NCBI GenBank assembly: GCA_030390025.1
Contig: JASTWF010000034.1
Span: forward strand, 4,216,001-4,280,000
Direction: 5' to 3'
DNA: 64,000 nt
From: Squalus acanthias
Lineage: Eukaryota
The first letter of the stretch is position 1; each line of letters starts with the position of its first letter. Shown one piece after another: positions 14,805 to 64,000 of the stretch. The notes under the pieces are model-generated. The model did no database searches. It had not been told where the DNA came from and was given only the letters and a program-made list of their open reading frames with translations. The position numbers were made by a program, and so were the translations under genes.

Positions 14805-15126
14805 ATTATTAAATAGAATCCACTGGTTGAGATATAGAATGATATCAATATTAAGCTAGAATAACCAGGGATTAAGTTGGGTTAAAACACAGACCAGATA
14901 GACACACATCTGCTGCCGAGCATGGGTAAGTGTGAGGATTGAATTTAATGCCAGCAGGGTGTCTGGAGGACTGCTGGGGAGTGTGGCCAGAGAATCAGTC
15001 CCTTTTGTAAAGGACATTGGAAGCTGTGAGGGTTTGAAGGTTACAGAAGCAGGTAATTAACACTCCTGTGTGGGAGAGTAAAGAGCAAACTGACAGAGAT
15101 CAATGGGCAAGCACAACGAATGATAA

Positions 15127-21100: not shown

Positions 21101-23926
21101 TAAACCAGCAGCACACTGGCCCACTAAACGAACTGCTCACCTCCCCAATAAACCAGCAGCTCACCTCCCCACTAAACCAGCAGCACACTGGCCCACTAAA
21201 CGAACAGCTCACTTCCCCACTAAACCAGCAGCTCACCTCCCCACTAAACCAGCAGCTCACTGCCCACCAAACCAGCAGCTCACTGCCCACTAAACCAGCA
21301 GCTCACTCACCACTAAACCAGCAGCTCACTGGCCCACTAAACCAGCAGCTCACTGGCCCACTCAAACAGCAGCTCACTGGCCCACTATACCAGCAGCTCA
21401 CTGGCCCACTAAACCAGCAGCTCACTAGCCCACCAAATCAGCAGCTCACTGCTCCACTAAACCAGCAGCTCACTGGCCCACTAAACCAGCAGCTCACTAG
21501 CCCACTAAATCAGCAGCTCACTGCTCCACTAAACCAGCAGCTCACTGGCCAACTAAACTAGCAGCTCACTGGCCACTAAATCAGCAGCTCACTGGCCCAC
21601 TCAACCAGCAGCTCACTCCCACAGTAAACCTAGCAGCTCACTGGCCCACTAAACCAGCAGCTCACTGGCCCACTAAACCAGCAGCTCACTGGCCCACTAA
21701 ACCAACAGCTCACTGTCCCACGAAACCAGCAGTTCACTGGCAACTCAACCAGCAGCTCACTGGCCCACTAAACCAGCAGCTCACTGACCCACTAAACCAG
21801 CAGCTCACTGGTCCACTAAACCAGCAGCTCAGCTCCCCCACTAAACCAGCAGCTCACTGGCCCACTAAACCAGCAGCTCACTGGCCCACTAAAGCAGCAG
21901 CTCACTGGCCCACTAAACCAACAGCTCACTGTCCCACGAAACCAGCAGTTCACTGGCAACTCAACTAGCAGCTCACTGGCCCACTAAACCAGCAGCTCAC
22001 TGGCCCACTAAACCAGCAGCTCACTGGCCCACTAAATTAGCAGCTCACTGGCCCACTCAACCAGCAGCTCACCTCCACAGTAAACTAGCAGCTCACTGGC
22101 CCACTCAAACAGAAGCTCACTGGCCTACTAAACCAGCGGCTCACTGGCCCACGAAACCATCAGCTCCCTGGCCCACTAAACTGCAGCTTAGAACCACTAA
22201 ACCAGCACCTCACTGGCCCACTAAACCAGCAGCTCACCTCCCTACTGAACCAGCAGCTCAACTGGCCCAATAAACCAGCAGCTCAGTGGCCCACTAAACC
22301 AGCAGCTCACTGGCCCACTAAACCAGCAGCTAAGCTCCCCACTGAACCAGCAGCTGACTGGCCCACTAAACCAGCAGCTCACTGGACCACTAAACCAGCA
22401 GCTTGCTGGCCCAGTTAACCTGCAGCTCACTGGCCCACTCAACCAGCAGCTCACTGGCCCACTCAACCAGCAGCTCACTGGCCCACTCAACCAGCAGCTC
22501 ACTGGCCCACTCAACCAGCAGCTCACTGGCCCACTCAACCAGCAGCTCACTGGCCCACTAAACCATCAGCTCACTGGCCCACTAAACCAGCAGCTCACTG
22601 GCCCACTAAACCAGCAGCTCACTGACCCACTAAACCAGCAGCTCACTGGCCCACTAAATCAGCAGCTCACTGGCCCACTCAACCAGCAGCTCACCTCCCC
22701 ACTAAACCAGCAGCTCACTGGCCCACTACACCAGCAGCTCACTGGCCCACTAAACCAGCATCTCACTTGCCCGCTAAACCAGCAGCTCACTGTCCCACTA
22801 AACCAGCAGCACACTGTCCCACGGAACAAGCAGCTCACTGTCCCACTAAACCAGCAGCTCACTGGCACACTAAACCAGCAGCTCACTGGCCCACTCAAAC
22901 AGAAGCTCACTGACCTACTAAACCAGCGGCTCACTGGCCCACTAAACCATCAGCTCACTGGCCCACTAAACCAGCAGCTCACTGACACACTAAACCAGCA
23001 CCTCACTGGCCCACTAAACCAGCAGCTCACTGGCACACTAAACCAGCAGCTCACTGGCCCACTCAAACAGAAGCTCACTGGCCCACTAAACCAGCGGCTC
23101 ACTGGCCCACTAAACCAGCACCTCACTGGCCCACTAAACCAGCTGCTCACTGGCCCACTGAACAAGCAGCTCACTGGCCCACTAAACCAGCAGCTCACCT
23201 CCCCACTGAACCAGCAGCTCAGCTCCCCACTGAACCAGCAGCTCACTTGCCCACTAAACCAGAAGCTCACTGGACCACTAAACCAGCAGCTTGCTGGCCC
23301 AGTTAACCTGCAGCTCACTGGCCCACTAAACCAGCAGTTCACTGGCAACTCAACCAGCAGCTCACTGGCCCACTCAACCAGCAGCTCACTGGCCCACTAA
23401 ACCAGCAGCTCACTGGCTCACTAAATCAGCAGCTCACTAGCTCACTATACCAGCAGCTCACTGACCCACTAAACCAGCAGCTCACTGGCCCACTAAACCA
23501 GCAGCTCACCTCCCCACTAAACCAGCAGCTCACTGGCCCACTAAACGAACAACTGACTGGCCCACTGAACCAGCAGCTCACTGGCCCACTAAACCATCAG
23601 CCCCACTAAACCAGCAGCTCACTGGCCCACTAAACCAGCAGCTCACCGTCCCAATATACCAGCAGCTCACTGGCGCACTAGACCAGCAGCTCACTGGCCC
23701 ACTAAACGAACAGCTCACTGGCCCACTGAACCAGCAGCTCACTGGCCCACTAGACCATCAGCCCCACTAAACCAGCAGCTCACTGGCCCACTAAACCAGC
23801 AGCTCACCGTCCCAATAAACCGGCAGCTCACTGGCGTACTAAACCAGCAGCTCACTGGCCCACTAAACCAGCAGCTAACTGACACACTAAACCAGCAGCT
23901 CACTGGCCCAATAAACCAGCAGCTCA
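15127..23926 (+). repeat. 24-bp minisatellite (TCACTGGCCCACTAAACCAGCAGC)n, C-rich strand on +
   Basis: Hundreds of units; the 8-aa ORF repeat SCWFSGPV confirms period 24. Confidence 0.97.
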
Positions 23927-26344
23927 CATAGATACATAGATACATAGAAGATAGGAGCAGGAGTAGGCCATCCGGCCCTTCGAGCCTGCTCCGCCATTTA
24001 ATGAGATCATGGCTGATCCTTCAATTCAGTATCCCGTCCCCGCCTTCTCTCCGTAACCCTTAACCCCTTTTGCCTGTAGAAATATATCTAATTCCCTCTT
24101 AAATATATTTAATGAGCTGGCGTACACTGCCCTCTGTGGCAATGAGTTCCACAGGTTCACCACCCTCTGAGTGAAGAAATTCCCCCTCATTTCTGTCCTA
24201 AATGGTTTAGCCCTTATCCTTAAATTATGTCCTCTAGTTCTGTTCTCACCCGCCAAGGGAAACATTCCTTCTGCGTCTAATCTGTCTAGACCTGTCAGAA
24301 TTTTATACACTTCTATGAGGTCCCCTCTCAATCTTCTAAACTCCAGTGTGTACATCCCTAAACTACATAGTCTCTCCTCATAGGTCAATCCCGCCATTCC
24401 TGGTATCAGCCTGGTGAATCGCCGCTGCACCCCCTCCATGGCAAGAACATCTTTCCTCAGATGAGGCGACCAAAACTGTACACAGTACTCGAGGTGTGGT
24501 CTCACCAGTGCCCTGTACAGCTGCAGCAAGGTATCCCTGTTCCTGTATTCCAACCCTTTTGCTATGAAGGCCAGCATACCGTTTGCCTTCTTGACCGCCT
24601 GTTGCACCTGCATGCTCGCCTTCAGTGACTGGTGTACAAGAACACCCAGGTCTCTCTGTACTTCCCCCTCTCCCAATTTATTGCCATTTAAATAATAATT
24701 TGCCCTCCCGTTCCTGCACCCAAGGTGGATAACTTCGCACTTGTCCACATTATAGTGCATCTGCCATTTATCCGCCCAATCACCCAGTCTGTCCAAATCG
24801 CTCTGGAGCTTCCTGGTCTCCTCCTCTGAGCCCACCCCCCCTCCTAGTTTAGTGTCGTCTGCAAATTTGGAAATGCTGCATTCGACTCCCTGATCCAGGT
24901 CATTAATATAAATTGTGAACAGCTGGGGACCCAGGACAGATCCCTGTGGTACCCCACTTGTTACTGCCTGCCATTCAGAAAATGAGCCGTTTATTCCAAC
25001 TCTCTGTTTTCTATCTGACAGCCAGTTCTCTATCCACGTCAATACTTTCCCCTTTATCCCATGAGCTTCAATTTTCCATGCTAATCTTTTATGTGGGACC
25101 TTATCGAAGGCCTTTTGGAAGTCCAGGTACACCACATCTACTGGCTCTCCCCCATCTATTTTACCAGTTACTCCCTCAAAAAATTCCAATAGATTAGTCA
25201 AGCACGATTTACCCTTTGTAAATCCATGTTGACTCTGTCCTATCCTGTCCCCATTTGCTAAGTGCTCGGCTATTTCATCCTTAATGATGGACTCCAGCAA
25301 TTTGCCCACAACTGATGTAAGGCTTACAGGTCTGTAATTACCTGCTTTTTCCCTACCCCCCTTTTTGAATAGTGGGGTAACGTTAGCTACCCTCCAATCC
25401 ATGGGCACTGTTCCCGAGTCTAATGAATTCTGAAAAATCATGCTTAGTGCATCCGCTATCTCTAGGGCCACCTCCTTCAGTACCCTAGGATGCATGTTAT
25501 CAGGCCCTGGGGATTTGTCCGCCTTCAATCCCTTTAGCTTCCTTAACACCATATCCTTAGAGATATTGATTTGCGTCAGTTCCTCCTTTGCCAATGTCCC
25601 TATTTTTCCCGATATCCCAGGGAGGTTTTTTGTGTCTTCCTTCGTAAAGACTGACCCAAAGTATGCATTTAGTTGGTCTGCCATTTCCTTATTTCCCATT
25701 ATATATTCCCCCGTATCTGACTGCAATGGACCAACTTTGGTTTTCACCAGTCTTTTCCTCTTGATATACTTATAAAAGCTTTTGGAGTTAGTTTTTATAT
25801 TTTCCGCCAGCTTGCTTTCGTAAGCTATTTTGCCCTTCTTGATTAAGCCCTTTGCCCTCCTTTGCTCTATCTTAAACTGTTCCCAATCTTCCGCTCTGGC
25901 GCGTTTTTTGGCTATTTTATACGCCCTATCTTTGGATTTTATGCTGTCTCTAATTTCCCCTGTTATCCACGGTTGAGTCACCTTTTTAGATTTCCTTTTA
26001 TGCCAGATTGGTATAAACAATTTTTGCAATTTTGTCATTCTATCTTTAAATGCTTGCCATTGTTTATCTACCTCCAGTCCTCCCAGGAACGTTGTCCAAT
26101 CAGACCTACTCAGTTCCCGTCTAATGGCATCATAATTCCCCTTGTTTAAATTCAGGACCTGAGTCTCTGAGTCAATTTCTTCGCTCTCCATTTCGAGTGA
26201 GAAATCGATCATGTTATGATCGCTCTGACCCAAGGGTCCCCGTACAACAAGATTACTAATTAGTCCCTTCTCATTGCACAGTACCCAGTCCAATATAGCC
26301 TGTTCCCGAGTTGGTTCCTCGACATATTGATCCAGATAACCATC
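23927..26344 (-). mobile_element. Young CR1 LINE inserted in the 24-bp array, running into the gap
   Basis: (tctatgta)n 3' tail at 23927-23948, short 3' UTR, uninterrupted ORF2. Confidence 0.95.
24026..26344 (-). CDS. CR1 ORF2 (APE endonuclease C-terminus plus reverse transcriptase), 5'-incomplete
   Basis: PLGQSDHNMI, KSPGPD, NYRPVSLTS, YLDFQKAFD, GVPQGSVLGP and KFADDTKL; open for more than 755 codons up to the N gap. Confidence 0.93.
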   Translation of the reverse strand, partial: DGYLDQYVEEPTREQAILDWVLCNEKGLISNLVVRGPLGQSDHNMIDFSLEMESEEIDSETQVLNLNKGNYDAIRRELSRSDWTTFLGGLEVDKQWQAFKDRMTKLQKLFIPIWHKRKSKKVTQPWITGEIRDSIKSKDRAYKIAKKRARAEDWEQFKIEQRRAKGLIKKGKIAYESKLAENIKTNSKSFYKYIKRKRLVKTKVGPLQSDTGEYIMGNKEMADQLNAYFGSVFTKEDTKNLPGISGKIGTLAKEELTQINISKDMVLRKLKGLKADKSPGPDNMHPRVLKEVALEIADALSMIFQNSLDSGTVPMDWRVANVTPLFKKGGREKAGNYRPVSLTSVVGKLLESIIKDEIAEHLANGDRIGQSQHGFTKGKSCLTNLLEFFEGVTGKIDGGEPVDVVYLDFQKAFDKVPHKRLAWKIEAHGIKGKVLTWIENWLSDRKQRVGINGSFSEWQAVTSGVPQGSVLGPQLFTIYINDLDQGVECSISKFADDTKLGGGVGSEEETRKLQSDLDRLGDWADKWQMHYNVDKCEVIHLGCRNGRANYYLNGNKLGEGEVQRDLGVLVHQSLKASMQVQQAVKKANGMLAFIAKGLEYRNRDTLLQLYRALVRPHLEYCVQFWSPHLRKDVLAMEGVQRRFTRLIPGMAGLTYEERLCSLGMYTLEFRRLRGDLIEVYKILTGLDRLDAEGMFPLAGENRTRGHNLRIRAKPFRTEMRGNFFTQRVVNLWNSLPQRAVYASSLNIFKRELDIFLQAKGVKGYGEKAGTGY

Positions 26345-26544
26345 NNNNNNNNNNNNNNNNNNNNNNNNNNNNNNNNNNNNNNNNNNNNNNNNNNNNNNNN
26401 NNNNNNNNNNNNNNNNNNNNNNNNNNNNNNNNNNNNNNNNNNNNNNNNNNNNNNNNNNNNNNNNNNNNNNNNNNNNNNNNNNNNNNNNNNNNNNNNNNNN
26501 NNNNNNNNNNNNNNNNNNNNNNNNNNNNNNNNNNNNNNNNNNNN
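26345..26544. other. Assembly gap (200 N)
   Basis: Run of N; the round length suggests a scaffolding spacer. Confidence 1.
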
Positions 26545-29500
26545 TTAGTGGGCCAGTGAGCTGCTGGTTTAGTGGGCCAGTGAGCTGCTGGTTTATTCGG
26601 CCAGTGAGCTGCTGGTTTATTGGGCCAGTGAGCTGCTGGTTTAGTGGGGAGGTGAGCTGCTGGTTTATTGTGTCAGTGAGCTGCTGGTTTAGTGGGCCAG
26701 TGAGCTGCTGGTTTCGTGGGTCAGTGAGCTGCTGGTTTATTCGGCCAGTGAGCTGCTGGTTTAGTCGGGAGGTGAGCTGTCGGTTTATGGGCCAGTGAGC
26801 TGCTGATTTAGTGGGCCAGTGAGCAGCCGGTTTAGTGGGCCAGTGAGCTTCTGGTTTAGTGGGTCATAGAGCTTCCGGTTTAGTGGGCCAGTGAGCTGCC
26901 GGTATAGTGGGCCAGGGAGCTGCTGGTTTAGTGGGCTATTGAGCTGCCGGTTTAGCGGGACAGTGACTGCTGGTTTAGTGAGCCAGTGAGCTGCTGGTTT
27001 AGTGGGCCAGTGAGCTGCTGGTTTAGTGGGGAGTTGAGCTGCTGGTTTAGTGGGGAGTTGAGCTGCTGGTTTAGTGTGCCAGTGAGCTGCTGGTTTAGTG
27101 GGCCAGTGAGCTGCTGGTTTAGTGGGCCAGTGAGCTGCTGGTTTAGTGATCCAGTGAGCTGCTGGTTTAGTTGGCCAGTGAGCTGCTGGTTTAGTGGGCC
27201 AGTGAGCTGCTGGTTTATTGTGCCAGTGAGCTGCTGGTTTATTGGGCCAGTGAGCTGTCGGTTTATTGGGGAGGTGAGCTGCTGGTTTAGTTGGCCGGTG
27301 AGCTGCTGGTTTAGTGGGCCGGGGAGCTGTTGGTTTAGTGGGCCAGGGAGCTGCTGGTTTAGTGAGCAGTGAGCTGCTGGTTAAGTGGGGATGTGAGCTG
27401 CTGGTTTAGTGGGGAGGTGAGCTGCTGGTTTAGTGGGGAGGTGAGATGCTGTTTTTGTGTGCCAGTGAGCTGCTGGTTTAGCGGGGAGGTGTGCTGCTGG
27501 GTAAGTGGGCCAGTGAGCTGCTGGTTTAGTGGGCCAGTGAGCTGCTGGTTTAGTGGGCCAGTGAGCTGCTGGTTTAGTGGGCCAGTGAGCTGCTGGTTTA
27601 TTCGGCCAGTGAGCTGCTGGTTTATTGGGCCAGCGAGCTGCTGGTTTAGTGGGGAGGTGAGCTGCTGGTTTATTGTGTCAGTGAGCTGCTGGTTTAGTGG
27701 GCCAGTGAGCTGCTGGTTTCGTGGGTCAGTGAGCTGCTGGTTTATTCGGCCAGTGAGCTGCTGGTTTAGTGGGGAGGTGAGCTGTCGGTTTATGGGCCAG
27801 TGAGCTGCTGATTTAGTGGGCCAGTGAGCTGCCGGTTTAGTGGGCTATTGAGCTGCCGGTTTAGCGGGACAGTGACTGCTGGTTTAGTGAGCCAGTGAGC
27901 TGCTGGTTTAGTGGGCCAGTGAGCTGCTGGTTTAGTGGGGAGTTGAGCTGCTGGTTTAGTGGGGAGTTGAGCTGCTGGTTTAGTGTGCCAGTGAGCTGCT
28001 GGTTTAGTGGGCCAGTGAGCTGCTGGTTTAGTGGGCCAGTGAGCTGCTGGTTTAGTGGGCCAGTGAGCTGCTGGTTTCGTGGGTCAGTGAGCTGCTGGTT
28101 TATTCGGCCAGTGAGCTGCTGGTTTAGTGGGGAGGTGAGCTGTCGGTTTATGGGCCAGTGAGCTGCTGATTTAGTGGGCCAGTGAGCTGCCGGTTTAGTG
28201 GGCCAGTGAGCTTCTGGTTTAGTGGGTCATAGAGCTTCCGGTTTAGTGGGCCAGTGAGCTGCCGGTTTAGTGGGCCAGGGAGCTGCTGGTTTAGTGGGCT
28301 ATTGAGCTGCCGGTTTAGCGGGACAGTGACTGCTGGTTTAGTGAGCCAGTGAGCTGCTGGTTTAGTGGGCCAGTGAGCTGCTGGTTTAGTGGGGAGTTGA
28401 GCTGCTGGTTTAGTGGGGAGTTGAGCTGCTGGTTTAGTGTGCCAGTGAGCTGCTGGTTTAGTGGGCCAGTGAGCTGCTGGTTTAGTGGGCCAGTGAGCTG
28501 CTGGTTTAGTGGGCCAGTGAGCTGCTGGTTTAGTGGGCAGTGAGCTGCTGGTTTAGTGGGACAGTGAGCTGCTGGTTTAGTGGGCCAGTGAGCTGCTGGT
28601 TTAGTGGGCCAGTGAGCTGCTGGTTTAGTGGGCCAGTGAGCTGCTGGTTTAGTGGGTCAGTGAGCTGCTGGTTTAGTGGGCCAGTGAGCTGCTGGTTTAG
28701 TGGGTCAGTGAGCTGCTGGTTTAGTGGGCCAGTGAGCTGCTGGTTTAGTGGGCCAGTGAGCTGCTGGTTTAGTGGGCCAGGGAGCTGCTGGTTTAGTGGG
28801 CCAGGGAGCTGCTGGTTTAGTGGGCCAGTGAGCTGCTGGTTTAGTGGGACAGTGAGCTGCTGGTTTAGTGGGCCAGTGAGCTGCTGGTTTAGTGGGCCAG
28901 TGAGCTGCTGGTTTAGTGGGCCAGTGAGCTGCTGGTTTAGTGGGCAGTGAGCTGCTGGTTTAGTGGGCCAGTGAGCTGCTGGTTTAGTGGGCCAGTGAGC
29001 TGCTGGTTTATTGGGGAGGTGAGCTGCTGGTTTAGTTGGCCGGTGAGCTGCTGGTTTAGTGGGCCAGTGAGCTGCTGGTTTAGTGGGCCAGTGAGCTGCT
29101 GGTTTAGTGGGCCATTGAGCTGCTGGTTTATTGGGCCAGTGAGCTGCTGGTTTATTGTGCCAGTGAGCTGCTGGTTTATTGGGCCAGTGAGCTGTCGGTT
29201 TATTGGGGAGGTGAGCTGCTGGTTTAGTTGGCCGGTGAGCTGCTGGTTTAGTGGGCCAGGGAGCTGCTGGTTTAGTGAGCAGTGAGCTGCTGGTTAAGTG
29301 GGTAGGTGAGCTGCTGGTTTAGTGGGGAGGTGAGCTGCTGGTTTAGTGGGGAGGTGAGATGCTGTTTTTGTGTGCCAGTGAGCTGCTGGTTTAGCGTGCC
29401 AGTGAGCTGCTGGTTTAGTGGGCCAGGGAGCTGCTGGTTTAGCGGGGAGGTGTGCTGCTGGGTAAGTGGGCCAGTGAGCTGCTGGTTTAGTGGGCCAGTG

Positions 29501-31756
29501 AGCTGCTGGTTTAGTGGGCCAGTGAGCTGCTGGTTTATTCGGCCAGTGAGCTGCTGGTTTATTGGGCCAGTGAGCTGCTGGTTTAGTGGGGAGGTGAGCT
29601 GCCGGTTTAGTGGGTCAGTGAGCTGCTGGTTTAGTGGGCCAGTGAGCTGCTGGTTTAGTGGGTCAGTGAGCTGCTGGTTTAGTGGGTCAGTGAGCTGCTG
29701 GTTTATTCGGCCAGTGAGCATCTGGTTTAGTGGGGAGTTGAGCTGCTGGTTTAGTCTGCCAGTGAGCTGCTGTTTTAGTGGGCCAGTGAGCTGCTGGTTT
29801 AGTGGGCTATTGAGCTGCCGGTTTAGCGGGACAGTGACTGCTGGTTTAGTGATCCAGTGAGCTGCTGGTTTAGTTGGCCAGTGAGCTGCTGGTTTAGTGG
29901 GCCAGTGAGCTGCTGGTTTAGTGGGCCAGGGAGCTGCTGGTTTAGTGGGCTATTGAGCTGCCGGTTTAGCGGGACAGTGACTGCTGGTTTAGTGATCCAG
30001 TGAGCTGCTGGTTTAGTTGGCCAGTGAGCTGCTGGTTTAGTGGGCCAGTGTGCTGCCGGTTTATTGGGTCAGTGAGCTGCCGGTTTAGTGGGCCAGTGAG
30101 CTGCTGGTTTAGTGGGTCAGTGAGCTGCTGGTTTAGTGGGCCAGTGAGCTGCTGGTTTAGTGGGCCAGTGAGTTGCCGGTTTAGTGGGCCAGGGAGCTGC
30201 TGGTTTACTGGGCCAGGGAGCTGCTTTTTTCGTGGGCCAGGGAGCTGCTGGTTTAGTGGGACAGGGAGCTGCTGGTTTAGTGGGCCAGGGAGCTGCTGGT
30301 TCAGTGGGCAAGTGAGCTGCTGGTTCAGTGGGCCAGTGAGCTGCTGGTTTAGTGGGCCAGTGAGCTGCTGGTTTAGTGGGCCAGTGAGGTGCTGGTTTAG
30401 TGGGCCAGTGAGCTGCTGGTTTATTGGGGAGGTGAGCTGCTGGTTTAGTTGGCCGGTGAGCTGCTGGTTTAGTGGGCCAGTGAGCTGCTGGTTTAGTGGG
30501 CCAGTGAGCTGCTGGTTTAGTGGGCCAGTGAGCTGCTGGTTTATTGGGCCAGTGAGCTGCTGGTTTATTGTGCCAGTGAGCTGCTGGTTTATTGGGCCAG
30601 TGAGCTGTCGGTTTATTGGGGAGGTGAGCTGCTGGTTTAGTTGGCCGGTGAGCTGCTGGTTTAGTGGGCCAGGGAGCTGCTGGTTTAGTGAGCAGTGAGC
30701 TGCTGGTTAAGTGGGTAGGTGAGCTGCTGGTTTAGTGGGGAGGTGAGCTGCTGGTTTAGTGGGGAGGTGAGATGCTGTTTTTGTGTGCCAGTGAGCTGCT
30801 GGTTTAGCGTGCCAGTGAGCTGCTGGTTTAGTGGGCCAGGGAGCTGCTGGTTTAGCGGGGAGGTGTGCTGCTGGGTAAGTGGGCCAGTGAGCTGCTGGTT
30901 TAGTGGGCCAGTGAGCTGCTGGTTTAGTGGGCCAGTGAGCTGCTGGTTTATTCGGCCAGTGAGCTGCTGGTTTATTGGGCCAGTGAGCTGCTGGTTTAGT
31001 GGGGAGGTGAGCTGCTGGTTTAGTGGGTCAGTGAGCTGCTGGTTTAGTGGGCCAGTGAGCTGCTGGTTTAGTGGGTCAGTGAGCTGCTGGTTTAGTGGGT
31101 CAGTGAGCTGCTGGTTTATTCGGCCAGTGAGCATCTGGTTTAGTGGGGAGTTGAGCTGCTGGTTTAGTGTGCCAGTGAGCTGCTGTTTTAGTGGGCCAGT
31201 GAGCTGCTGGTTTAGTGGGCTATTGAGCTGCCGGTTTAGCGGGACAGTGACTGCTGGTTTAGTGATCCAGTGAGCTGCTGGTTTAGTTGGCCAGTGAGCT
31301 GCTGGTTTAGTGGGCCAGTGAGCTGCTGGTTTAGTGGGCCAGTGAGCTGCTGTTTTAGTGGGCCAGTGAGTTGCCGGTTTAGTGGGACAGTGACTGCTGG
31401 TTTAGTGGGACAGTGAGCTGCTGGTTTAGTGGGACAGTGAGCTGCTGGTTTAGCGGGACAGTGAGCTGCTGGTTTAGTGGACCAGGAGCTGCTGTTTAGT
31501 GGGCGAGTGAGCTGCTGTTTAAGTGGGCCAAGGAGCTGCTGGTTTAGTGGGCCAGTGAGCTGCTGGTTTAGTGGGCCAGTGAGCTGCTGGTTTAGTGGGC
31601 CAGGGAGCTGCTGGTTCAGTGGGCCAGGGAGCTGCTGGTTTAGTGGGCCAGTGAGCTGCTGGTTTAGTGGGCCAGTGAGCTGCTGGTTTAGTGGGCCAGT
31701 GAGCTGCTGGTTTAGTGGGCCAGTGAGCTGCTGGTTTAGTGGGGATGTGAGCTGTT
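26545..31756 (-). repeat. Same 24-bp minisatellite in inverted orientation
   Basis: (GCTGCTGGTTTAGTGGGCCAGTGA)n on +. Confidence 0.97.
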
Positions 31757-53681: not shown

Positions 53682-56600
53682 CTGGCGAGACAGCTTTAGA
53701 TCATTCTTTTAAACAATTGGAAATTACGGGAGTTGTGATTCTGACCTGTGGAGCGAAGTTTAAAAATAAATTCAAAAGATGCAGGATGAAGGGTCGGGGG
53801 GCATACAAAAAGACAACAAAATACGTAGCTGTAGCCTTCCATGAGAACATATACGAAAAGGTATCCATAAGGGACTTACAAGAGTTACGGGCACGATGCA
53901 TCTGTAAGGGCCAACATGCAGTCCTTTGGGAAGCTCGTGTCATTTATCCAGGAGAGGGTAGATGAGGGAAAGCTAAGGCCCAAACAGGCAAATGGTCTCT
54001 TGGCATTCGGGGCACATTACTGTGCTCGGAGAGATGAGGAATTAATGAGGCAGGATGCAAAAGAGATTCGAGATTTAAAGGGAGAGATACAAGATTTAAA
54101 AGAACTAAAATTCAAAGAGATTCAACTAAAAGAAAAGGAGATTCAAAATATTAAAGAACAGAAAGAAGAAGGCATCCAGCTTGTTAGACAGTTAAAGGAG
54201 GGTGAAATGCAGCATTTGAGACAAGAAATCGATCGATTAGGCCACAGTATCAGGCAACTAGAAAGAGGAGCCGAGCAGGCAGCTTCGTTGCTACAGCAAC
54301 AAAGCCTCTCACATTTAAATGCAGGAGCAGCTGTCGCGGCAGCAAATGAAATCAAATTAAAATCAAGAAATATAAATTGGAAAACCTGGGGCTCCGGCAG
54401 GAAGTAGAAGACGTTAGGGGGGCATTAAGGGAAGCAATTAAGAAGCTACATAGGGAGGCAGACCACTCCCGGTGCCGCCTAGAAATAGCGCGGCTGAAGA
54501 GTAAATTAGGGCAGCAACAGGCTCTAGTATCCGCAGTAACACGGGGAGCCATAATAGAGACAACAGAAAGGGACGAGGGGAAGACAGATTTGGAAGAGGA
54601 AGGCAGTCAGTGTAATCCCCAGCAGGGCGGCGAAGGATAGGATACCTTGGAGACACAAGGGCCAACCGTAGCAGTAGTGAACACTTCTTTACAGCGTAAT
54701 GTGCATGATCACATGACGAGTAACCATACCGAATCAGGGCCCATATCTGGTGCTGACACCACGGCGTGTAGCCACGAGTTAGGGCCCTATTAATTTTGGG
54801 GACGACCCACTGGTCGTTAATAGGAGGTGGATTATTTCAGGAGGAATCGCCCCGAGTTAGAAGAGGCAGACTTAACACGAGTCTTCCTCTTGTCCTGTTC
54901 CACTTTTTAAAGAATAATCTGCCAGACGCGATCCTCCAGCGTGGCACAGCGACCGATGCTGTCGTGACCGAGATCCTAAACCATATAGGGATCTAAAACT
55001 TAACCTTAGTGGATTTGCTTAGTCAGACTAAACAGCGCCCAGATGAGACCCCGAGAGCGTTCAGTAATCGCCTGTACGATATCTATGAACGTCCCCAGAA
55101 CCAGGCACCCGCAAATGCTGCAGCAGGAAAGAATCAGGAACCATTCAAAACGATGTTCCTGACCCAGCTCCACTCTTTAGTTAAAACCACACTGGGTATA
55201 GCCCTGAGGCCCGCCGATCAGTGGACAGATATAGAGATTAACGTTCAAAGAGCCTGGGAGATGGTAAAAGACCAGTTAAAGGTGAAGTCACCACCCACCG
55301 CAAAGAATCAGTGTCAGCGGTGGAGGGATCTAGGTACTACCCCTTTAGAGGACAGTGGTTTAATTGTAAGAAGGAAGGTCACCTCGCAAAACACTGCAGG
55401 AGACCCAGACAGGCACCGGACCACGATGCAACGCATAGATCCCTCCCGACGGATGAACCCGAGCCCTCTGGGGTGGAACAACAATTGGCTCAGTTAGTTA
55501 CCCTTTTAAAAAGGACGAATTCAAGTCCTCTGGGACGGATCAATGATTGGACCAGTTGATAACCCTCATGAAAGCTCAAATTGTCACGGGGCGGGGGGGG
55601 GGGGGGGGATGCAAAATCATTTACCGGTGCACGCAATCGCCAGTGCACACCCATTGGAAATGCAAATTCCTATTGTCAATGCACACCCATTGGAGGGACC
55701 CCTGCAAGGATCCACCCTATGACGGGGATTGTCCCCTAACGATTGGTCGGAAGTGGGGTTCCGATATGATGGTAGCGGGAGACCAGTAGTCCTTGTTGTC
55801 TTAAAAGTGGACCGGCAGCAGATTATGCTTATAGACACTGGCTCAGCCGTTACCATCATCCACACCCCATACCCTGAACGCCATGCAGCGGCGGGCAAGG
55901 GTTGTATGGCCCTTAAAGGGTTTATTGGTGATACAACCACCGCGTATACAGGGAAGGCCTCTGAACTTCAGTTGGGAGGCCTCATCTGTAAGGTCCCAGC
56001 GCCGATGCTGATGACCACCCCCGACGGAAGGGGAATGTTAGGGACTGATGTGTTGGATCAATATGGCGCGGTAATAGATTACAATCGGGACTGTGTTTGG
56101 ATGGGATTGAGAAATAATGCAAAAGTGACAGAAATTTCAGATGCTCACGCTGTTTTTGCTATTATAATGCTATCCGAGTATGATCCTCCGGGGAGCGAAA
56201 ATGAAGCTGTGGCAAAACTAATTCAGGAACACCTAGCGGTGTTTGCCACGTGCAAGCACGATTGTGGAAAAATGGGAGGCGAAGAGTCTATTGAGGGACC
56301 CCCCCCACTCATTCACTAACAGTACCCCATCCCAAGGGAGAGTCACCCGAGACACCATAAAATCTCTAGTCGAGAAGGGTGTTGTTATGACAGGCACTTC
56401 CACAACCAATTCACCCACACGACTGGTTAAAAAGCCTGATAGCAGCTGGCGACTGACTATTGCCGACAGAAAGTTCAATTCTGTAACGCCAGCCTGCTCA
56501 CCGGTAGTAAGAGAAGCTCCCACCATATTATCTCAAATTGCTGCTGGTTCCAAGTACTTCTCGACCCTCGACATGGCCAATTGATTCTGGAGTTTCCCTG

Positions 56601-58723
56601 TTAAAAGGGAGGACCAGTTAAATTCACGATCACAGTTGAGGATCAGAGCTACACCTGGACATGCCTGCCTCAGGGGGTCCACAATGCCCCCCATGATCTT
56701 CCACTAAAGAATGGCTGCGGTTTTAAAATACTTTTCCCGCCCTACCTGCTTGCTACAGTATGTAGACGGTCTACTGCTGGCAACCGATAACATGGAGGAG
56801 CATCTGTCCCTTTTGCACGTACTGTTGACATTATTGGCTCAGGCGGGACTAAAGGTGAATCCCCGTAAGGCTCAGTTGGTAAAAGAACGGGTCACCTTTC
56901 TGGGAGTGTCCATTTCTCCAGAGGGAGCGTCCCCCGACTCCTTCAAGGTGGAGATAATGCAGCGACTACCATTACCCATTTCCAAAACAGCCCTACGATC
57001 ATTCTTGGGTTTGGTGGGCTACCAAAGGGACTTTATCCCAGGCTTTGCAGAATGCGCAAAGCCCCTGTATGATTTGATAAAACTGCAGGGTGATGACATA
57101 CGCCCGGCATGGACTAATGATCACACCCAGTCCGTGGCCATATTAAAAACTGCAGTGATACAGGCCGCATGTCTGATTCCTCCAGTCCCACGCAGCCCTT
57201 CCATTTGGAGGTCGGGGCCACAGAACAAAGCCTCGCCGCAGTTCTGTGCCAAACGCGAGCTGATCGACTACCGTCCATTGCATATGCGTCTGGAATCCTG
57301 CAGGGGGCAGAAAAGACGTACACCGCGTGCGAGCGCCACCTGCTGGCCGTCTTCTGGGCGGTACATCATTTTACCTTTATTTCTGGCTGCAAGCTACCAT
57401 CCTTCACAGAGCTCATACGCCTCTGAGCCTACTGATGAAACCTGGAGATTCGCTAGTTTCCTCGCAGCACCTCAGCAAATGGACATTGGAATTTATGGAA
57501 AGAGACATTGGTATCATTTCCAAACCCACCACATTGGTGCCACAATTTCTGGTTTATGCGGGGGAACCGCATGAATGTCCGCTACCCCTGATTAACTTTG
57601 AGACCCATCCTGTGCAGAAAGAGCCCATACAGGGAGCCCCAGATGTCTACGTCGATGGGTCCTCATATCACATCGAGGGATGCCCCCACACCGGGTATGC
57701 TGTGGTATTGCCAGAGACAACCGTCCAGCGATGATGCAACCGACAGTCCACACAATATGCAGAAATCGCCGCACTTCTAAGCACCGTGATAGAAACCTCA
57801 GATAGGCCCGTGAATATTTGGTCCGATAGTGCCTATGCTATAAACACCATGCTCTCCTTGCCCCTATACCACAAAAATGACTACCGTACAATTGACGGTA
57901 ACGAACTGGTCCATGGGGCCTGGTTACGCCTGCTCTGGTCATACCTTAAACAGCGATCCCATCCCTGTTTCATAGAAAATGTAGCAGCCCATAGAAAAGG
58001 TGTCCACAAAGTGAGGGAAATTCCAGAGCAGACAGAGCAGCCAAGGACGCTGCGATTTATGGGGAGATAGAGGATATAGTTGTTGAGCCCTGAAACGGCT
58101 CTCCAACATTCACCTAGATTTAAATTCCCTGCAGCAGCAATACTGGCCATACGCCGTTGTAAGCGCCTGGCACGAGGGAGGCAGATCCTTTCCTCAACCG
58201 ACAGCCTGGGACCCCAATACCAGACTAGCCACTGACCCTGACTCAGCGGAGTAGTTGGTGATGTTGAAAAGAAAGCCATACATCTGCCCGGTGTTGTGTG
58301 TTCCACCAGAGCTGGGTCAGGAACTGCTGTCCCTCTTTCACACCTACACAACGGCAGGGCACTATTCGGCCCTGGCAATCTTCAGTAAGTCAGCAACCAC
58401 AGCTTGGTGGTCTTCCATGAGGGAAACAATCAACCAAATGTGGCACCATGCCGACCGTGCCTGCAGCCCAATCCTCCCACGTGCACTAACCCAGCCTTGC
58501 TTCAAAGCGCGCCCCCACCTCAAGGGCCATGGACTCACCTCCAAATAGACGTCATTGGGCCACTTCCACAGGTTCAAGGCACTTCTTGGCATGCCCTAGT
58601 GGTGGTGGATCAATTCACAAAATGTATCGAAGAATTCCCCTTCCGCTCCAACACCGCAATCACGGATGACAAAACACTATTAAATCATATGTTATGTCGG
58701 TGGGGTGTAACGGTAAAAGTGAA

Positions 58724-59190
58724 CAAGGGAATATAGTTAATTGTTAATTTGACATGATGCCCTCTACAACTGGGAATAAAGTTACAGTTAATTGTTAATT
58801 TGACATGACACCCGCTACACCGGGAAATAAATTTACAGTTAATTGTTAATTTGACATGATGCCCCCTACACCTGGGAATAAAGTTACAGTTAATTGTTAA
58901 TTTGACATGATACCCTCTGCACTGGGGAATAAAGTTACAGTCAATTGTTAATTTGACATGATACACTCTACACCAGGGAATAAATTTACAGTTAATTGTT
59001 AATTTGACATGATTGCCTCTACACCGGGGAATAAAGTTACAGTTAATTTTTAATTTGACATGATGGCTTCTACAACTGGGAATAAATTTACAGCACGGAC
59101 TAAAGTTACGGTTAATTGTTAATTTGACATGACACCCTCTACACCAGCGAATAAAGTTACAGTTATTTGTTAATTAGGGTTGATACCCTC
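58724..59190 (+). repeat. 51-bp minisatellite (ACAGTTAATTGTTAATTTGACATGATGCCCTCTACACCGGGGAATAAAGTT)n
   Basis: ttgttaattt at 58741 and 58792. Confidence 0.93.
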
Positions 59191-59384
59191 TGTCGTAAGA
59201 ATGAGCCTTACGCATGGTGAACTTAAAGTAAGCTTTAATCAACTAAAAAGGTGCTACATACAAAAGAGGTCTTACTCTATGCCTCTCCAGGATCCAACTG
59301 ATCAGCCCAGTATTTATCCTGGACTAATCACAGGAAGTGATGTAATAAAGTTCAAGTCACAGGAAGCTGTATTGTGTTACCACA
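59191..59384 (-). repeat. 3' LTR
   Basis: Direct repeat of 63470-63663. Confidence 0.97.
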
Positions 59385-59451
59385 TTCCCCCCCCCCCCCC
59401 AAAAGATTAGGAGGCCGGGATGAAGTTCGAGTCACAGGAAGCTGTATTGTG

Positions 59452-61960
59452 TTACCACATTCTCCCTCCATTTCGTAGCCGCTGGACGAGGGAGAGCCGC
59501 ACCCATTTGGGTTCTCGTCGCGGTAGAGGGCCCCTAGCCTGTTTACCCGCCGCGGGTCGTGGACCAAAGTCCGAGTGATCCAGCACGCTCTGTGAGGGGT
59601 CAGGACGATCCTGACTGTGTACTGGCGCCCGAACGGGTGTCGGGCAGGGCTGTGGCAGATCCGTTTCCGAGCGTATGGTACGGGGTGGATCGTGGCTGCG
59701 TGTGCGAGCCCCGACGGGCTCATAGTCAGTCTGCCCCAGGTCGGCACGCTGGAGTGAGGTACCAGCCGGCGTCAGATCCAGATCGTGATGAGAGGCACCT
59801 GGCGAGCCCAGAGATGTGCCTGGTACAATATCATCCCCTGGTGTCCCTCTATGTTTCGGCGGGCAGCGAGCCAGATCCCGCAATGACACGGTAGATTCCC
59901 GACCGTCAGGATACCGAATATAGGCGTAGGTAGGGTTGACGTCAGTGAGCTCAACCTCATCTACCAGGGGGTCATTCTTAGACGCCCGAACATATCTTCG
60001 GAGTAGCACTGGTCCCGGTGCAGTCAGCCACGACGGGAGAGATATCCCATAGGGTGAGCGACGCTGAAATCGGAAGAACCGTTCATGAGGCGTCGTACTT
60101 GTGGCGGTCGAAAGGAGGGACCGTGTGGAGTGTAATGCGTCTGGAAGTACTGCTTCCCATTGCTGGTTGGGTAGGCCCCGAGATCTCAAAGCCAGACGTA
60201 CCGCATTCCAGATGATAGCGTTAAAACGCTCGACTTGCCCATTCCCGACCGGATGATAAGGCGTCGTTCTGCTGGCAGCAATACCCCGTTCCGAGAGATA
60301 GGCCTTGAGTTCTCCTGACATAAAAGAAGGGCCCCGATCCGAATGAACATAGGATGCCATGCCACAGAAAGCAAATACCTGCTCAAGGCAGCTGATAACC
60401 GTGTTCGTCAGCATATTGGGGCAGGGAAAGGCAAACGGAAAACGGGAATACTCATCGACCATGGTCAATAGATAAGTGTTGCGAGTTGAAGAGGGCAACG
60501 GCCCCTTAAAATCGATGCTAAGCCATTGCATTGGCTGGGTCGCATGTATGAGTATACCACCCGAGGGGCGGAAAAACTGAGGTTTCAATTCCGCACAGAC
60601 TCTGCAGTCCGAGCACATCTTCTTTACATCCCCGGTAGAGAATGGGAGATTTCGGGACCGCACGAAGTGTAGCATGCGAGTAACGCCCGGATGACACAAC
60701 CCATCATGGATGTCTACGAGCGTAGAGGGTGCCATAGCGGAGCAGAATGCTCGTGTGAGGGTATCCGGAGCCACATTCTCCTTGCCAGGTCGATAGTGGA
60801 TGGTGTAACCAAAAGAGGCCAATTCCAGCCGCCAAAGCTGGATTTTATTATTTTTAATTTTGGTCCGTTTTCGATTATCGAGCATGAAGGCGACCGATCG
60901 CTGGTCCGTGATTAAGTTAAAGTGCTGGCGAGCTAGGAGATGAGTCCACTTCCGTACTGCCTCTATGATGGCTGTAGCTTCTTTCTCGACTGGAGGATAA
61001 TGTAGCTCAGCCCCTTGAAAAGTCCTGGACAAAAATGCCACCGGACGACCTTCCTGATTCAGAGTGGCCGAGATCGCCACCTCCGAGGCATCACACTCAA
61101 CAACAAAAGGAAGACTCTCATTGATGGAGTGAAGAGCCGCTTTCTCCAACTGTTTTTTCAGGAGTTTAAAGGCTGCAACAGCCGCTGTGTCTAGTGGGAA
61201 TGTGCTGGCCTTCAGTAGAGGTTGGATTCGGTCCGAGAAGTTAGGAATCCATTTAGCATAGTATGCAAACAGGCCGAGGGCCCGGCGCAAGGAGGCCGGA
61301 TTCTTAGGTGGCGGGAGTTCTTGGAGTGGGCGAAGCCTTTCAGGGTCAGGTTTAATGATGCCATTGCCCACACAATAGCCAAGGATGTTGATGGTGGTTG
61401 TGACTCAATGGATTTAGCCGCATTTAATGTCAAATTACGGTGCTGGAGTGCATCCCAAAATCGTTGGAGATTGGCGTCATGTTCCCGCTGATTGCGACCT
61501 GCGACAGTAATATTGTCCAGATAAGGAAACGTATCCTTTAAGTCTTCCTGTTTGACCAGGTCATCCATTGCTCGCTGGAAGACAGCCACTCCATTAGTGA
61601 CCCCAAAGGGGAGGCGACGAAATTGATACAGCCGTCCATTGGCTTCAAAGGCCGTATACTGCTTGTCTGAGACCTTCAAGGGTACCTGATGATAGGCACT
61701 TTTCAGATCATATGTTGAGAACACCGTGTACTCAGCCAGTTTATTAACCATATCATCGATGCGCGGCAATGGGTATGCGTCCAAGTCCGTATATTGATTG
61801 ATGGTCTGTGAATAGTCAATGCACAGCCGTTTCTTGTGAGGTTGTAGAGGGTAACGACCTGGGCGCGCCATGGCGACGAACAAGGCTCGATGATATCCTC
61901 TGCTAAAAGCCGAGAAATCTCAGCCGCAATAAAAGACTGGTCTTCCTGACTGAAACGTCG
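59452..61960 (-). pseudogene. Gypsy pol (RT, RNase H, integrase) with frameshifts at ~61850 and ~61400
   Basis: RLCIDY, YPLPRID, DLKSAYHQ, PFGV, YLDN; VECDAS, TDQRS; HHCC, IDFKGP, HSDRG and NGQVER. Confidence 0.92.
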
Positions 61961-63391
61961 TTACTTTGTTATAATCAGTTTGCATCGAGGAGGGATACTG
62001 GTAAACAGTGAGGGTTCATCCAGTGAAGCTGCTGACAATGCACAGAACGGTAATCGAGGTCGTATATTAGAAATAGTGAGTTCAGGTTTGGATCCGCCGA
62101 ACTCAATGGTGAGCTTCTTATGCTGCTTTTGAAAATCTAGCCCTAAGATAAGATCACTACATAAGTCCTTGAGCACCGAAAGCCGGGTGGAGGGATACCT
62201 GTGACCATTAAGTGTTATTTCAACCATACAACAGCCAGAAATTCTGGTATTAAGTGATGACTGAGCCATCGCAATTGCCTGGTCCGATGGGAAAACATGT
62301 AGCTTTAACTCTGCAACAATCTGTTCCCTAATGAAACTATCAGTGCTACCTGAGTCAATTAAGGCATCTAAAGTATGTCCATTAATTGATGCTTTTGTAG
62401 CTGCATGGAATAGGTTCTGAGGACAAGCAGCTGTAATTGGTGTCGTTGCACAAAGAGTGGCTGAAACTCTAGGTGTGTTTCTTCGAGAGAAAACCCGAGA
62501 GGAAGCACGATAGATTTTAGCCGGAACATCTTGATAAGCCCTTACCGGGGCAGTTCGGTAGGACTTAGCTTGATAAGCCCTCGTAGAGGCTCTTGATAGG
62601 CAAACCTTTGCAAAATGACCGTTTTTGTTGCAATGACTGCAAAACGCATTGCGAGCAGGGCAGAATTTCCGAGGGTGGAACTCATCACCACAAAAGAAGC
62701 ATTTCTTCGATTGCCAAGAGGCTGCCACAGTGGGGTCATCATCCTCTTCATCAGTGAAGTCATCAGATTGATCGTCAGGGATAAAGACCTCCCTAATAGA
62801 GTTCACCTGTGGCCTCTTAAATTGCCTGACTGTAGTTAAGGCAGCAGACCGAGGTCTGGGCACTGTATAAAGGTCTGCATTTCTTTTTGCCAGATCTAGA
62901 GAGCAAGCCATGTCATAAGCTCTCTGAAGCTCAAGTGTCTTACTTTCCAGTAGACGCTGGCGTATAAATGGGGAGACAAGCCCGCAGATGAAAGCATCAC
63001 GGATCATTTCTTCACGGTACAGCTCAGCTGAGGCCGCCTGAAAGTTACAGTCCATACTAAGTCTGCGAAGCTCTTGGAGGAATTTATCAATGGATTCCTC
63101 CGGCCCTTGTTGGGCTGTAGCTAGTAGATGTCTGGCATAGACCTCATTCGGTGTCTTAGTATATAGTCTTTTAAGCGTCCGAATTGCCTCCTCGTAACTG
63201 CCCCATTCCTCGACATACTGAAATACATTCGGGGTGACACAGTTGATGAGTATCCGCAATTTTGAGTCATCATCAGCCTTGCAATATTCGAGAAAATTGT
63301 CAAACGTGCGATACCAGTGTTTCCACACCTTACCGGCTGCTGGGGTGTTTGGGTCCAAGTCAAGACGCGATGGTTTAATGATGTTTTCCAT
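61961..63391 (-). CDS. Gypsy gag-protease ORF, 476 aa
   Basis: Two Cys/His knuckles (CFFCGDEFHPRKFC, CSHCNKNGHFAKVC) and LIDSGS; the frame continues into RT past the TAA at 61961. Confidence 0.9.
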   Translation of the reverse strand: MENIIKPSRLDLDPNTPAAGKVWKHWYRTFDNFLEYCKADDDSKLRILINCVTPNVFQYVEEWGSYEEAIRTLKRLYTKTPNEVYARHLLATAQQGPEESIDKFLQELRRLSMDCNFQAASAELYREEMIRDAFICGLVSPFIRQRLLESKTLELQRAYDMACSLDLAKRNADLYTVPRPRSAALTTVRQFKRPQVNSIREVFIPDDQSDDFTDEEDDDPTVAASWQSKKCFFCGDEFHPRKFCPARNAFCSHCNKNGHFAKVCLSRASTRAYQAKSYRTAPVRAYQDVPAKIYRASSRVFSRRNTPRVSATLCATTPITAACPQNLFHAATKASINGHTLDALIDSGSTDSFIREQIVAELKLHVFPSDQAIAMAQSSLNTRISGCCMVEITLNGHRYPSTRLSVLKDLCSDLILGLDFQKQHKKLTIEFGGSKPELTISNIRPRLPFCALSAASLDEPSLFTSIPPRCKLIITK

Positions 63392-63469
63392 GATGGGTGA
63401 TTCCCTGGATCCTTAGTTCCGAGTTCGTCCAAAAAGTTTGAGTGCGAAGTTTTTCAAAGTTGATTAAAT

Positions 63470-63663
63470 TGTCGTAAGAATGAGCCTTACGCGTGGTGAA
63501 CTTAAAGTAAGCTTTAATCAACTAAAAAGGTGCTACATACAAAAGAGGTCTTACTCTATGCCTCTCCAGGATCCAACTGATCATCCCAGTATTTATCCTG
63601 GACTAATCACAGGAAGTGATGTAATAAAGTTCAAGTCACAGGAAGCTGTATTGTGTTACCACA
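63470..63663 (-). repeat. 5' LTR
   Basis: Direct repeat of 59191-59384, upstream of gag. Confidence 0.97.
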
Positions 63664-64000
63664 CCCTCCACACTGGGGAATACAGTTTCAGTTAATTGTA
63701 TATTTAGAAATGATGCCCTCTGCACAAGGGAATAAGTTTCAGTTAATTGTTAATTTGACATGATACCCTGTTTAACGGGGAACAAATTTACAGCTAATTG
63801 TTAGTTTTACATGATGCCCTCTACACCGGGGAATAAAGTTACAGTAAATTGCTAATTTGGCATGACACGCTCTACATCGGGAAATAAATTTACAGTTAAT
63901 TGTTAATTTGACATGATGCCCTCTACACCGGGGAATAAAGTTACAGTAAATTGTTAATTTGACATGACACCCTCTACACCGGGGAATAAAGTTACAGTTA
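63664..64000 (+). repeat. 51-bp minisatellite, continuing after the Gypsy insertion
   Basis: Same unit as 58724-59190. Confidence 0.93.

Follow-up and report, generated by a model that had tools for sequence, protein, structure and literature searches.

Tf1 primes reverse transcription with the first 11 bases of its own RNA, which RNase H cuts between bases 11 and 12 (PMC7175516). Self-priming has been described for the Tf1/sushi group and predicted for Tcn1 and for TAR, a lineage of plant copia elements (PMC6317226), and it has likewise been predicted for Tj1 (PMC4600332). In the passages that deal with their primer sites, Skipper and bivalve TRIM elements are reported to have neither a tRNA site nor a clear complement in the LTR (PMC5006619, PMC6934838), and a term search of PMC2774666 found nothing relevant. 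The literature consulted ties self-priming to the Tf1/sushi chromoviruses and to one plant copia lineage. Here we describe a second large Gypsy clade, from animals, in which sequence comparison indicates that self-priming very probably operates outside the sampled chromoviruses, and probably in a Tf1-like form.

Anatomy of the element and its primer site

The window, the whole 64-kb stretch of DNA analysed, has at its end a Gypsy element on the minus strand (63663-59191, 4,473 nt) with the following features.

63664..63668, minus strand: target-site duplication GAGGG, 5 bp (other copy 59190-59186), within a 51-bp tandem array
63470..63663, minus strand: 5' LTR, 194 nt, TG...CA ends, two differences from the 3' LTR
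63590..63597, minus strand: TATA-like box, 74 nt upstream of the arm, giving a rival RNA start near 63566
63513..63523 (also 59244-59234), minus strand: LTR arm, LTR positions 141-151, exact complement of the primer site
63500..63512, minus strand: small hairpin directly after the arm, predicted by RNA folding
63473..63491, minus strand: U5 stem-loop adjoining the LTR end, predicted by RNA folding
63468-63458, minus strand: primer-binding site TTTAATCAACT, separated from the 5' LTR by one A (63469), with no TGG
61961..63391, minus strand: gag (two CCHC knuckles) and protease, the frame ended by a stop codon in the window copy
59452..61960, minus strand: RT, RNase H and integrase, in more than one frame in the window copy, without a chromodomain
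59423..59461, minus strand: 39-nt insert resembling the LTR start, behind a purine-rich run and upstream of the true polypurine tract
59385..59400, minus strand: polypurine tract
59191..59384, minus strand: 3' LTR, also 194 nt with TG...CA ends, with the second arm copy at 59244-59234

The TG...CA LTRs, the target duplication, the polypurine tract and the order of protease, RT, RNase H and integrase place the element in Ty3/Gypsy, and Ty3 Gag-Pol is the best solved-structure match of a full-length relative. The window copy is damaged: a stop codon follows the protease, and the RT region contains frame changes. Its Gag region contains two CX2CX4HX4C knuckles, in line with the twin-knuckle gag claimed in an earlier note on this DNA. 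Target duplications of 5 bp accompany all eight family copies checked. The 39-nt insert keeps the frame and is found in four of eight family copies checked; it serves as a subfamily marker and has the look of a template-switch product.

The insertion site is the 51-bp tandem array, which occupies window positions 58735-59190 and 63664-64000, and similar flanks are seen around L068 and L075, two sister-family copies located on the contig of the window. A decayed retrovirus-like pol on the plus strand (55700-58736; protease, RT, RNase H, integrase), related to L236, adjoins the array. At window positions 15100-31400, large strand-skewed tandem arrays lie in inverted orientation on either side of a LINE fragment and an N gap.

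The earlier note had placed the primer site at 63468-63458 and its complement at 63523-63513 and 59244-59234, and the 11-base complementarity is exact at these positions. No TGG follows the 5' LTR, as had been claimed, and the overlap of the arm with a poly(A) signal also holds, the 3' end of the arm being the poly(A)-type hexamer ATTAAA. Perfect pairing extends over exactly 11 bases, and a match of at least 11 nt starting 0-3 nt past the LTR arose in 9 of 20,000 dinucleotide shuffles of the LTR. RNA folding predicts pair probabilities of at least 0.98 at the central positions, both for an RNA starting at 63523 and for one starting 43-54 nt earlier. Comparison of the sequence with Rfam gave no match. 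Stems of at least 4 bp follow the arm in 15 of the 21 families compared below, which beats shuffles (0 of 5,000), with other offsets scoring equally high. The arm is likely to be the self-primer, a predicted role that draws on the blind search and covariation across families described in the following section.

Complementarity across families and the tRNA alternative

In the source genome (3.7 Gb searched; retrovirus-like elements are also present), the best 150 gag matches listed show 99-100% identity, and open frames of about 1,323 codons contain many of them; judged by this identity, the window family is young. The primer site is unchanged in all 56 family copies inspected, which were chosen as best matches. 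Searching with a diverged Gag revealed two further families that have different LTRs and carry both motifs in the same geometry. Genome-wide, 3,192 junctions of the three families carry both motifs intact, as against none for a reversed control pattern. The same primer site in three families could nevertheless mean a fixed host primer, so that relatives from outside the genome are needed.

Such relatives were drawn from 90 outside loci in metagenome and genome collections, of which 30 include the start of gag; their hosts are probably animals whose DNA is present within those assemblies. A blind search, defined as the longest perfect inverted repeat upstream of gag, found a perfect repeat of 11-18 nt at the junction of LTR and primer site in 22 of the 30 outside loci and in all three own-genome families, and each of these repeats was equalled by at most one of 100 shuffles. 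For 11 of the 22 paired outside loci the LTR end was set independently by comparing both LTRs. Six of the 30 relatives have no perfect pair of at least 11 and two more have too little upstream DNA; pairing is imperfect and at the right place in L133 and L139, and the blind search upstream of gag showed no pair in L103, L108, L123 and L138. A lack of complementarity in relatives, which the earlier note had named as evidence against self-priming, is thus not what the 22 perfectly paired outside loci show.

The relatives and the three own-genome families were grouped by eye, after the result was known, into 21 families with 14 different primer-site 11-mers. Watson-Crick pairing to the family's own LTR accounts for 229 of 231 positions, an upper figure since the anchor was chosen to maximise pairing. 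By comparison, only 28 of 420 cross-family pairs match in full, and the own-LTR total was reached in none of 100,000 permutations, in which kinship is ignored. Because of this choice of anchor and the neglect of kinship, the blind search is the fairer test. Pairing continues beyond the 11 bases in 20 of the 21 families at position 12, in 18 at position 13, in 11 at position 14 and in eight at position 15; the 11-nt duplex proposed earlier is therefore exact in the window family, but across the clade the duplex is mostly 12-14 bp. The inner end of the pairing is constant across families (AAA then G or A in the LTR; CA, one base and TTT after it), and the partner sits one base past the LTR end in every family. 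The hexamer at the end of the arm is ATTAAA in nine families, AATAAA in four and GTTAAA in three.

The compensatory changes that had been suggested as a check are found at two scales. Across the 21 families, the 14 primer sites track their own LTRs, and two different primer sites occur within one assembly (L122 versus L097). At closer range, a single change in both LTRs of L095 is mirrored in its primer site and is absent from the near-identical siblings L097 and L111.

Separately, five contigs of about 4 kb (L099, L100, L109, L171, L172) contain the element in a seemingly circularly permuted form, and represent either LTR circles or collapsed assemblies. Several permuted elements occur in genomes filed as bacterial, probably through host contamination. 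No relative was found among viral contigs.

Variation within the source genome is less informative. At the position tested there are 37 variants, namely one mirrored, 14 confined to the LTR and 22 confined to the primer site, and a second position tested has no mirrored variant. The sole mirrored variant is changed in the 5' LTR and the primer site with the 3' LTR unchanged, and hence says nothing about replication. This copy, together with the AT-richness of the arms, is what might be expected if the inverted repeat were a by-product of DNA template switching between quasi-palindromic arms, with no role in priming. Against this stand the conserved position, inner boundary and spacing from the LTR end across otherwise unrelated LTRs, and the presence of the arm in both LTRs; moreover, the family is young and abundant, so some primer is needed. 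We consider such an origin scarcely credible. At G000 C1:566513-575072, three family junctions occur with a spacing of 4,247 nt and are probably tandem copies with common LTRs.

Priming by the 3' end of a mature tRNA requires TGG, which the primer site lacks, and the alternative is then a tRNA fragment, the likeliest being a 5' piece of tRNA-Thr(AGT) or tRNA-Ile(AAT) whose end lies in the D-arm. The genome was screened with a targeted pattern made from the primer site with G-U pairs allowed. This pattern gave 69 matches, and six of 12 scanned loci were confirmed as tRNA genes; a general tRNA family search gave only Lys and Cys among the 16 loci scanned. The genome has genes for both tRNA-Thr(AGT) and tRNA-Ile(AAT) whose D-arm pairs with the primer site through one or two G-U pairs. 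The D-loop of tRNA-Thr(AGT) matches the arm at 10 of 11 bases, and the calculated duplex energy (-9.2 kcal/mol for the tRNA) is near that of the LTR arm (-9.8 kcal/mol). The arm with its flanks (window 63525-63511) matches the tRNA-Thr(AGT) D-arm at 14 of 15 bases (L337, L343), and might at some time have been captured from a tRNA.

In Tf1, the primer is reported to be copied into the primer-site DNA (PMC11042837). With copying of this kind, position 6 of the primer site should have become C if tRNA-Thr or tRNA-Ile were the primer, but this C is absent from the five position-6 variants among about 3,200 junctions; the templated base is thus seen in none of these primer sites. Nor would a tRNA fragment account for 14 different primer sites that follow their own LTRs. 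A match to a tRNA fragment, anticipated in the earlier note as a possible refutation, was found in the D-loop of tRNA-Thr but left no trace in some 3,200 sites. Priming by a tRNA fragment is largely refuted and, in our view, very improbable, and the tRNA-independent self-priming claimed in the note is supported both by the covariation across families and by the failure of the one tRNA look-alike from the targeted pattern.

The predicted cut and the start of the RNA

Self-priming in some form is, on this evidence, highly likely. Its 5'-arm version, in which the 11-base LTR arm pairs with the primer site and primes reverse transcription as in Tf1, is the form we think probable. Lying near the 5' end of the RNA, the arm would bend back and form an RNA duplex with the primer site, and a cut after the last A of the arm, by RNase H if the analogy with Tf1 holds, would free a 3' end from which minus-strand DNA starts, the 5' copy of the arm being the primer. 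Strong-stop DNA would then end at LTR base 152 and transfer by way of the short segment that separates the cut from the poly(A) site. In the 3' LTR the hexamer may act as poly(A) signal, and in the 5' LTR the duplex would mask it. The predicted cut falls between 63513 and 63512 (LTR 151/152), as suggested by the fixed inner end of the pairing and by aberrant copies.

Among these aberrant copies are four at different loci in which each of the two LTRs runs from bases 17-21 straight into bases 151-155, AGCTT being common to these two stretches. A search for the joint gave eight matches, all of them paired, and these make up four elements that differ in their interiors and have 5-bp target duplications.

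G000 C1:233412562, C3:107236248, C4:24610946 and C10:28811878: elements with 68-nt mini-LTRs at both ends (L367-L374)

Each was found once, and the shortest, of about 300 nt, resembles a miniature (TRIM-like) element. The 39-nt insert is present in three of the four and missing from one, which points to at least two parent subfamilies and implies that at least two of the events were independent. A deletion that is present in both LTRs must have originated during reverse transcription or been passed on by it, most simply from strong-stop DNA that ended near base 152 and landed on a short homology in U3. The LTR holds nine microhomologies of at least 5 bases, and two of eight alternative joints were searched as controls (55/144 and 86/141, with right ends inside the arm); neither gave a match, in line with strong-stop DNA that never includes the arm. 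The homology at the deletion joint is wider (7 of 8), and the elements number four in total. No breakpoint at 152 without microhomology was found, and a control at 161 showed one substitution and no breakpoint. Two-LTR deletions that end at 151-155 are indirect support for the predicted cut directly after the duplex, and fit strong-stop DNA that ends there. Such deleted-LTR fossils offer a route to mapping the end of strong-stop DNA from sequence alone.

The pairing might instead merely mask the 5' poly(A) signal or shape the leader RNA, while another primer starts DNA synthesis, and the poly(A)-type hexamer that ends the arm in most families is in keeping with this. Masking, however, would not require the partner to sit exactly one base past the LTR end in each family. 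Nor is there another primer site, and the deletion joint maps to the edge of the arm. We regard masking without priming as improbable.

Six copies (L320, L361-L365) have a primer site that runs on into inverted sequence upstream of the arm; two of them have shortened LTRs, with the joint for which the search above was made. In L363-L365 it continues through the inverted 3' LTR and the polypurine tract into the interior, and in L362 into inverted U3; in one case (L361) the inverted run-on stops at LTR base 96, near the rival RNA start. These copies can be read in two ways, as mis-annealing of a plus-strand primer-site copy to leftover arm or as priming from the 3' end of the RNA, and both would need a cut at 151/152. 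The second is consistent with a primer supplied by the arm of the 3' LTR; this arm, on the same RNA molecule or a co-packaged one, would be cut after the hexamer and then anneal to the primer site, and the run-ons of L362-L365 speak for it. Yet with its 3' end cut at 151, the RNA would lose the acceptor for strong-stop DNA ending at 152. Further, the run-ons are rare (six found versus 3,192 normal junctions) and are also explained by the mis-annealed plus-strand copy or by DNA inversion. A 3'-arm primer is therefore unlikely, and the 5' arm remains the preferred primer.

The start of the RNA can be placed in two ways. TATA-like boxes occur in all three own-genome families, at -74 in the window family and at -90 and -92 in its two sisters, and would place the start about 43-60 nt before the arm, in conflict with a start at the arm. 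Among the 18 outside families, only four have a TATA-like word within 120 nt, and its position varies. In 20 of 21 families a G stands ten bases before the cut, in a context that resembles the metazoan initiator consensus. A primer that ends where the pairing ends would, we infer, let the second strand transfer proceed. The RNA may start at the outer edge of the arm (63523, the start predicted in the earlier note), which would make the primer 11-14 nt long, or its start may lie some 43 nt farther upstream; alternative starts have been reported for Tf2 (PMC5341516). Contigs assembled from four RNA runs span the whole LTR but are uninformative here, showing no start, joint or poly(A) end, and a search for a poly(A)-tailed retrocopy ending past the hexamer found none.

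Splicing within the LTR (GT...AG, LTR 110-142) was considered and rejected; the intron would be only 33 nt long and would shorten the match, and the sole deletion in that region is off the splice positions and in one LTR only.

Placement in Ty3/Gypsy and comparison with known systems

An RT tree of 182 columns was built by a quick method from 61 of 69 rows, eight short rows having been dropped. Its chromovirus references are algal and plant proteins, with Tf1, sushi and the SURL/C-clade not among the rows, and its Mag label was assigned by eye against a reference alignment. The clade of the window element (33 rows) is separate (SH-aLRT 100; 99-100 over this and a second tree) on a long stem, apart from the sampled chromoviruses, Mag-type and retrovirus-like elements, and its RT motifs differ by eye from those of Sushi, Maggy, Mag and SURL. 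In the second tree, likewise quick and of 36 rows, a union of the clade with the most divergent chromodomain-bearing row is rejected (p-AU 0.014). Chromoviruses as its sister group are not rejected (p-AU 0.36), and the best tree joins the clade weakly to Mag (support 66).

In accordance with the earlier claim of no visible chromodomain, searches of the window's frames, of all 18 aligned sequences and of the precomputed domains of the 120 homologs listed found none. SH3_Tf2-1 had no match in the window's frames or in the 18 aligned sequences. No chromovirus was found in the source genome, where SH3_Tf2-1 matches accompanied by an RT are mostly retrovirus-like and the chromodomain matches inspected are apparently host genes. 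By these protein comparisons the clade is not a member of the sampled chromoviruses, and one or two origins of self-priming both fit. The suggestion that the element lies outside the Tf1/sushi group thus holds for the sampled algal and plant chromoviruses, but a sister relation to chromoviruses stays compatible with the data. Similarly, the feature had been presented as that of a vertebrate element, but it is not special to vertebrates; clade proteins span corals, crustaceans, molluscs, flatworms, nematodes and tunicates, the named ones coming from shrimp, isopod, tunicate, snail, fluke, Trichinella and corals.

Taken at its widest, the reading is of an animal-wide Gypsy clade without a chromodomain, ranging from coral to vertebrate, that came to self-prime independently of Tf1/sushi when its poly(A) signal was turned into the primer. 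A single arm of 11-14 bases would then prime DNA synthesis, conceal the poly(A) signal of the 5' LTR and terminate the RNA in the 3' LTR, and the botched copies would record the cut to a precision of a few bases. We put this forward tentatively, as a serious possibility that falls somewhat short of probable.

A second self-priming Gypsy clade would bear on the question of whether tRNA or hairpin priming came first (PMC3601003). If these elements do self-prime, thousands of young copies (3,192 junctions) would escape silencing by tRNA fragments directed at primer sites. Annotation tools that seek a tRNA site will miss or misname such elements.

The clade may already have a name. Cigr-1 is a short element, about 4.2 kb long, with a single frame and an echinoderm-like Gag, known from Ciona and also from molluscs and annelids, and on size and Gag the window clade may be the Cigr-1 clade. 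A Cigr-1 family is coded BG in a mollusc survey, from which the host is inferred, and a Biomphalaria protein falls in the window clade. Two surveys that treat Cigr-1 do not mention primer sites, and the Atlas gives only generic names. Selgy was rejected as the clade name, being applied in its source to a plant clade. A literature search, in which older subscription papers and databases were thinly covered, found no description of self-priming in this clade, and a prior note of it in the older literature is quite possible.

Twin CCHC knuckles are a Mag-like trait, and the window clade shares them with the Mag lineage (A/B clades), which occurs in the same genome; the RT clade is nonetheless separate from Mag, and the element does not belong there. 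Saci-2/lennie is described as a single-frame flatworm Gypsy lineage with variable primer sites (PMC12471100). It differs from the window clade in its tRNA-Leu primer site, mostly 4-bp duplications and CCCH Gag; the window element, with neither a tRNA-Leu site nor a CCCH Gag, was not identified with it. The TAR lineage (Houba, Osr-1) of plant Ty1/copia is likewise predicted to self-prime outside the chromoviruses (PMC6317226), but belongs to a different superfamily with a different domain order, and to plants. Closest in priming are Tf1/Tf2, Tj1 and the Tf1/sushi group including Tcn1, which like the window family have a primer site complementary to their own LTR and no TGG; the duplex of the window family is 11 bases long, and in Tf1 RNase H cuts after base 11. 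In contrast to Tf1/sushi, the window clade lacks a chromodomain and SH3_Tf2-1, has a twin-knuckle Gag and an RT outside the sampled chromoviruses, and forms a duplex of mostly 12-14 bp with an arm that ends in a poly(A)-type hexamer.
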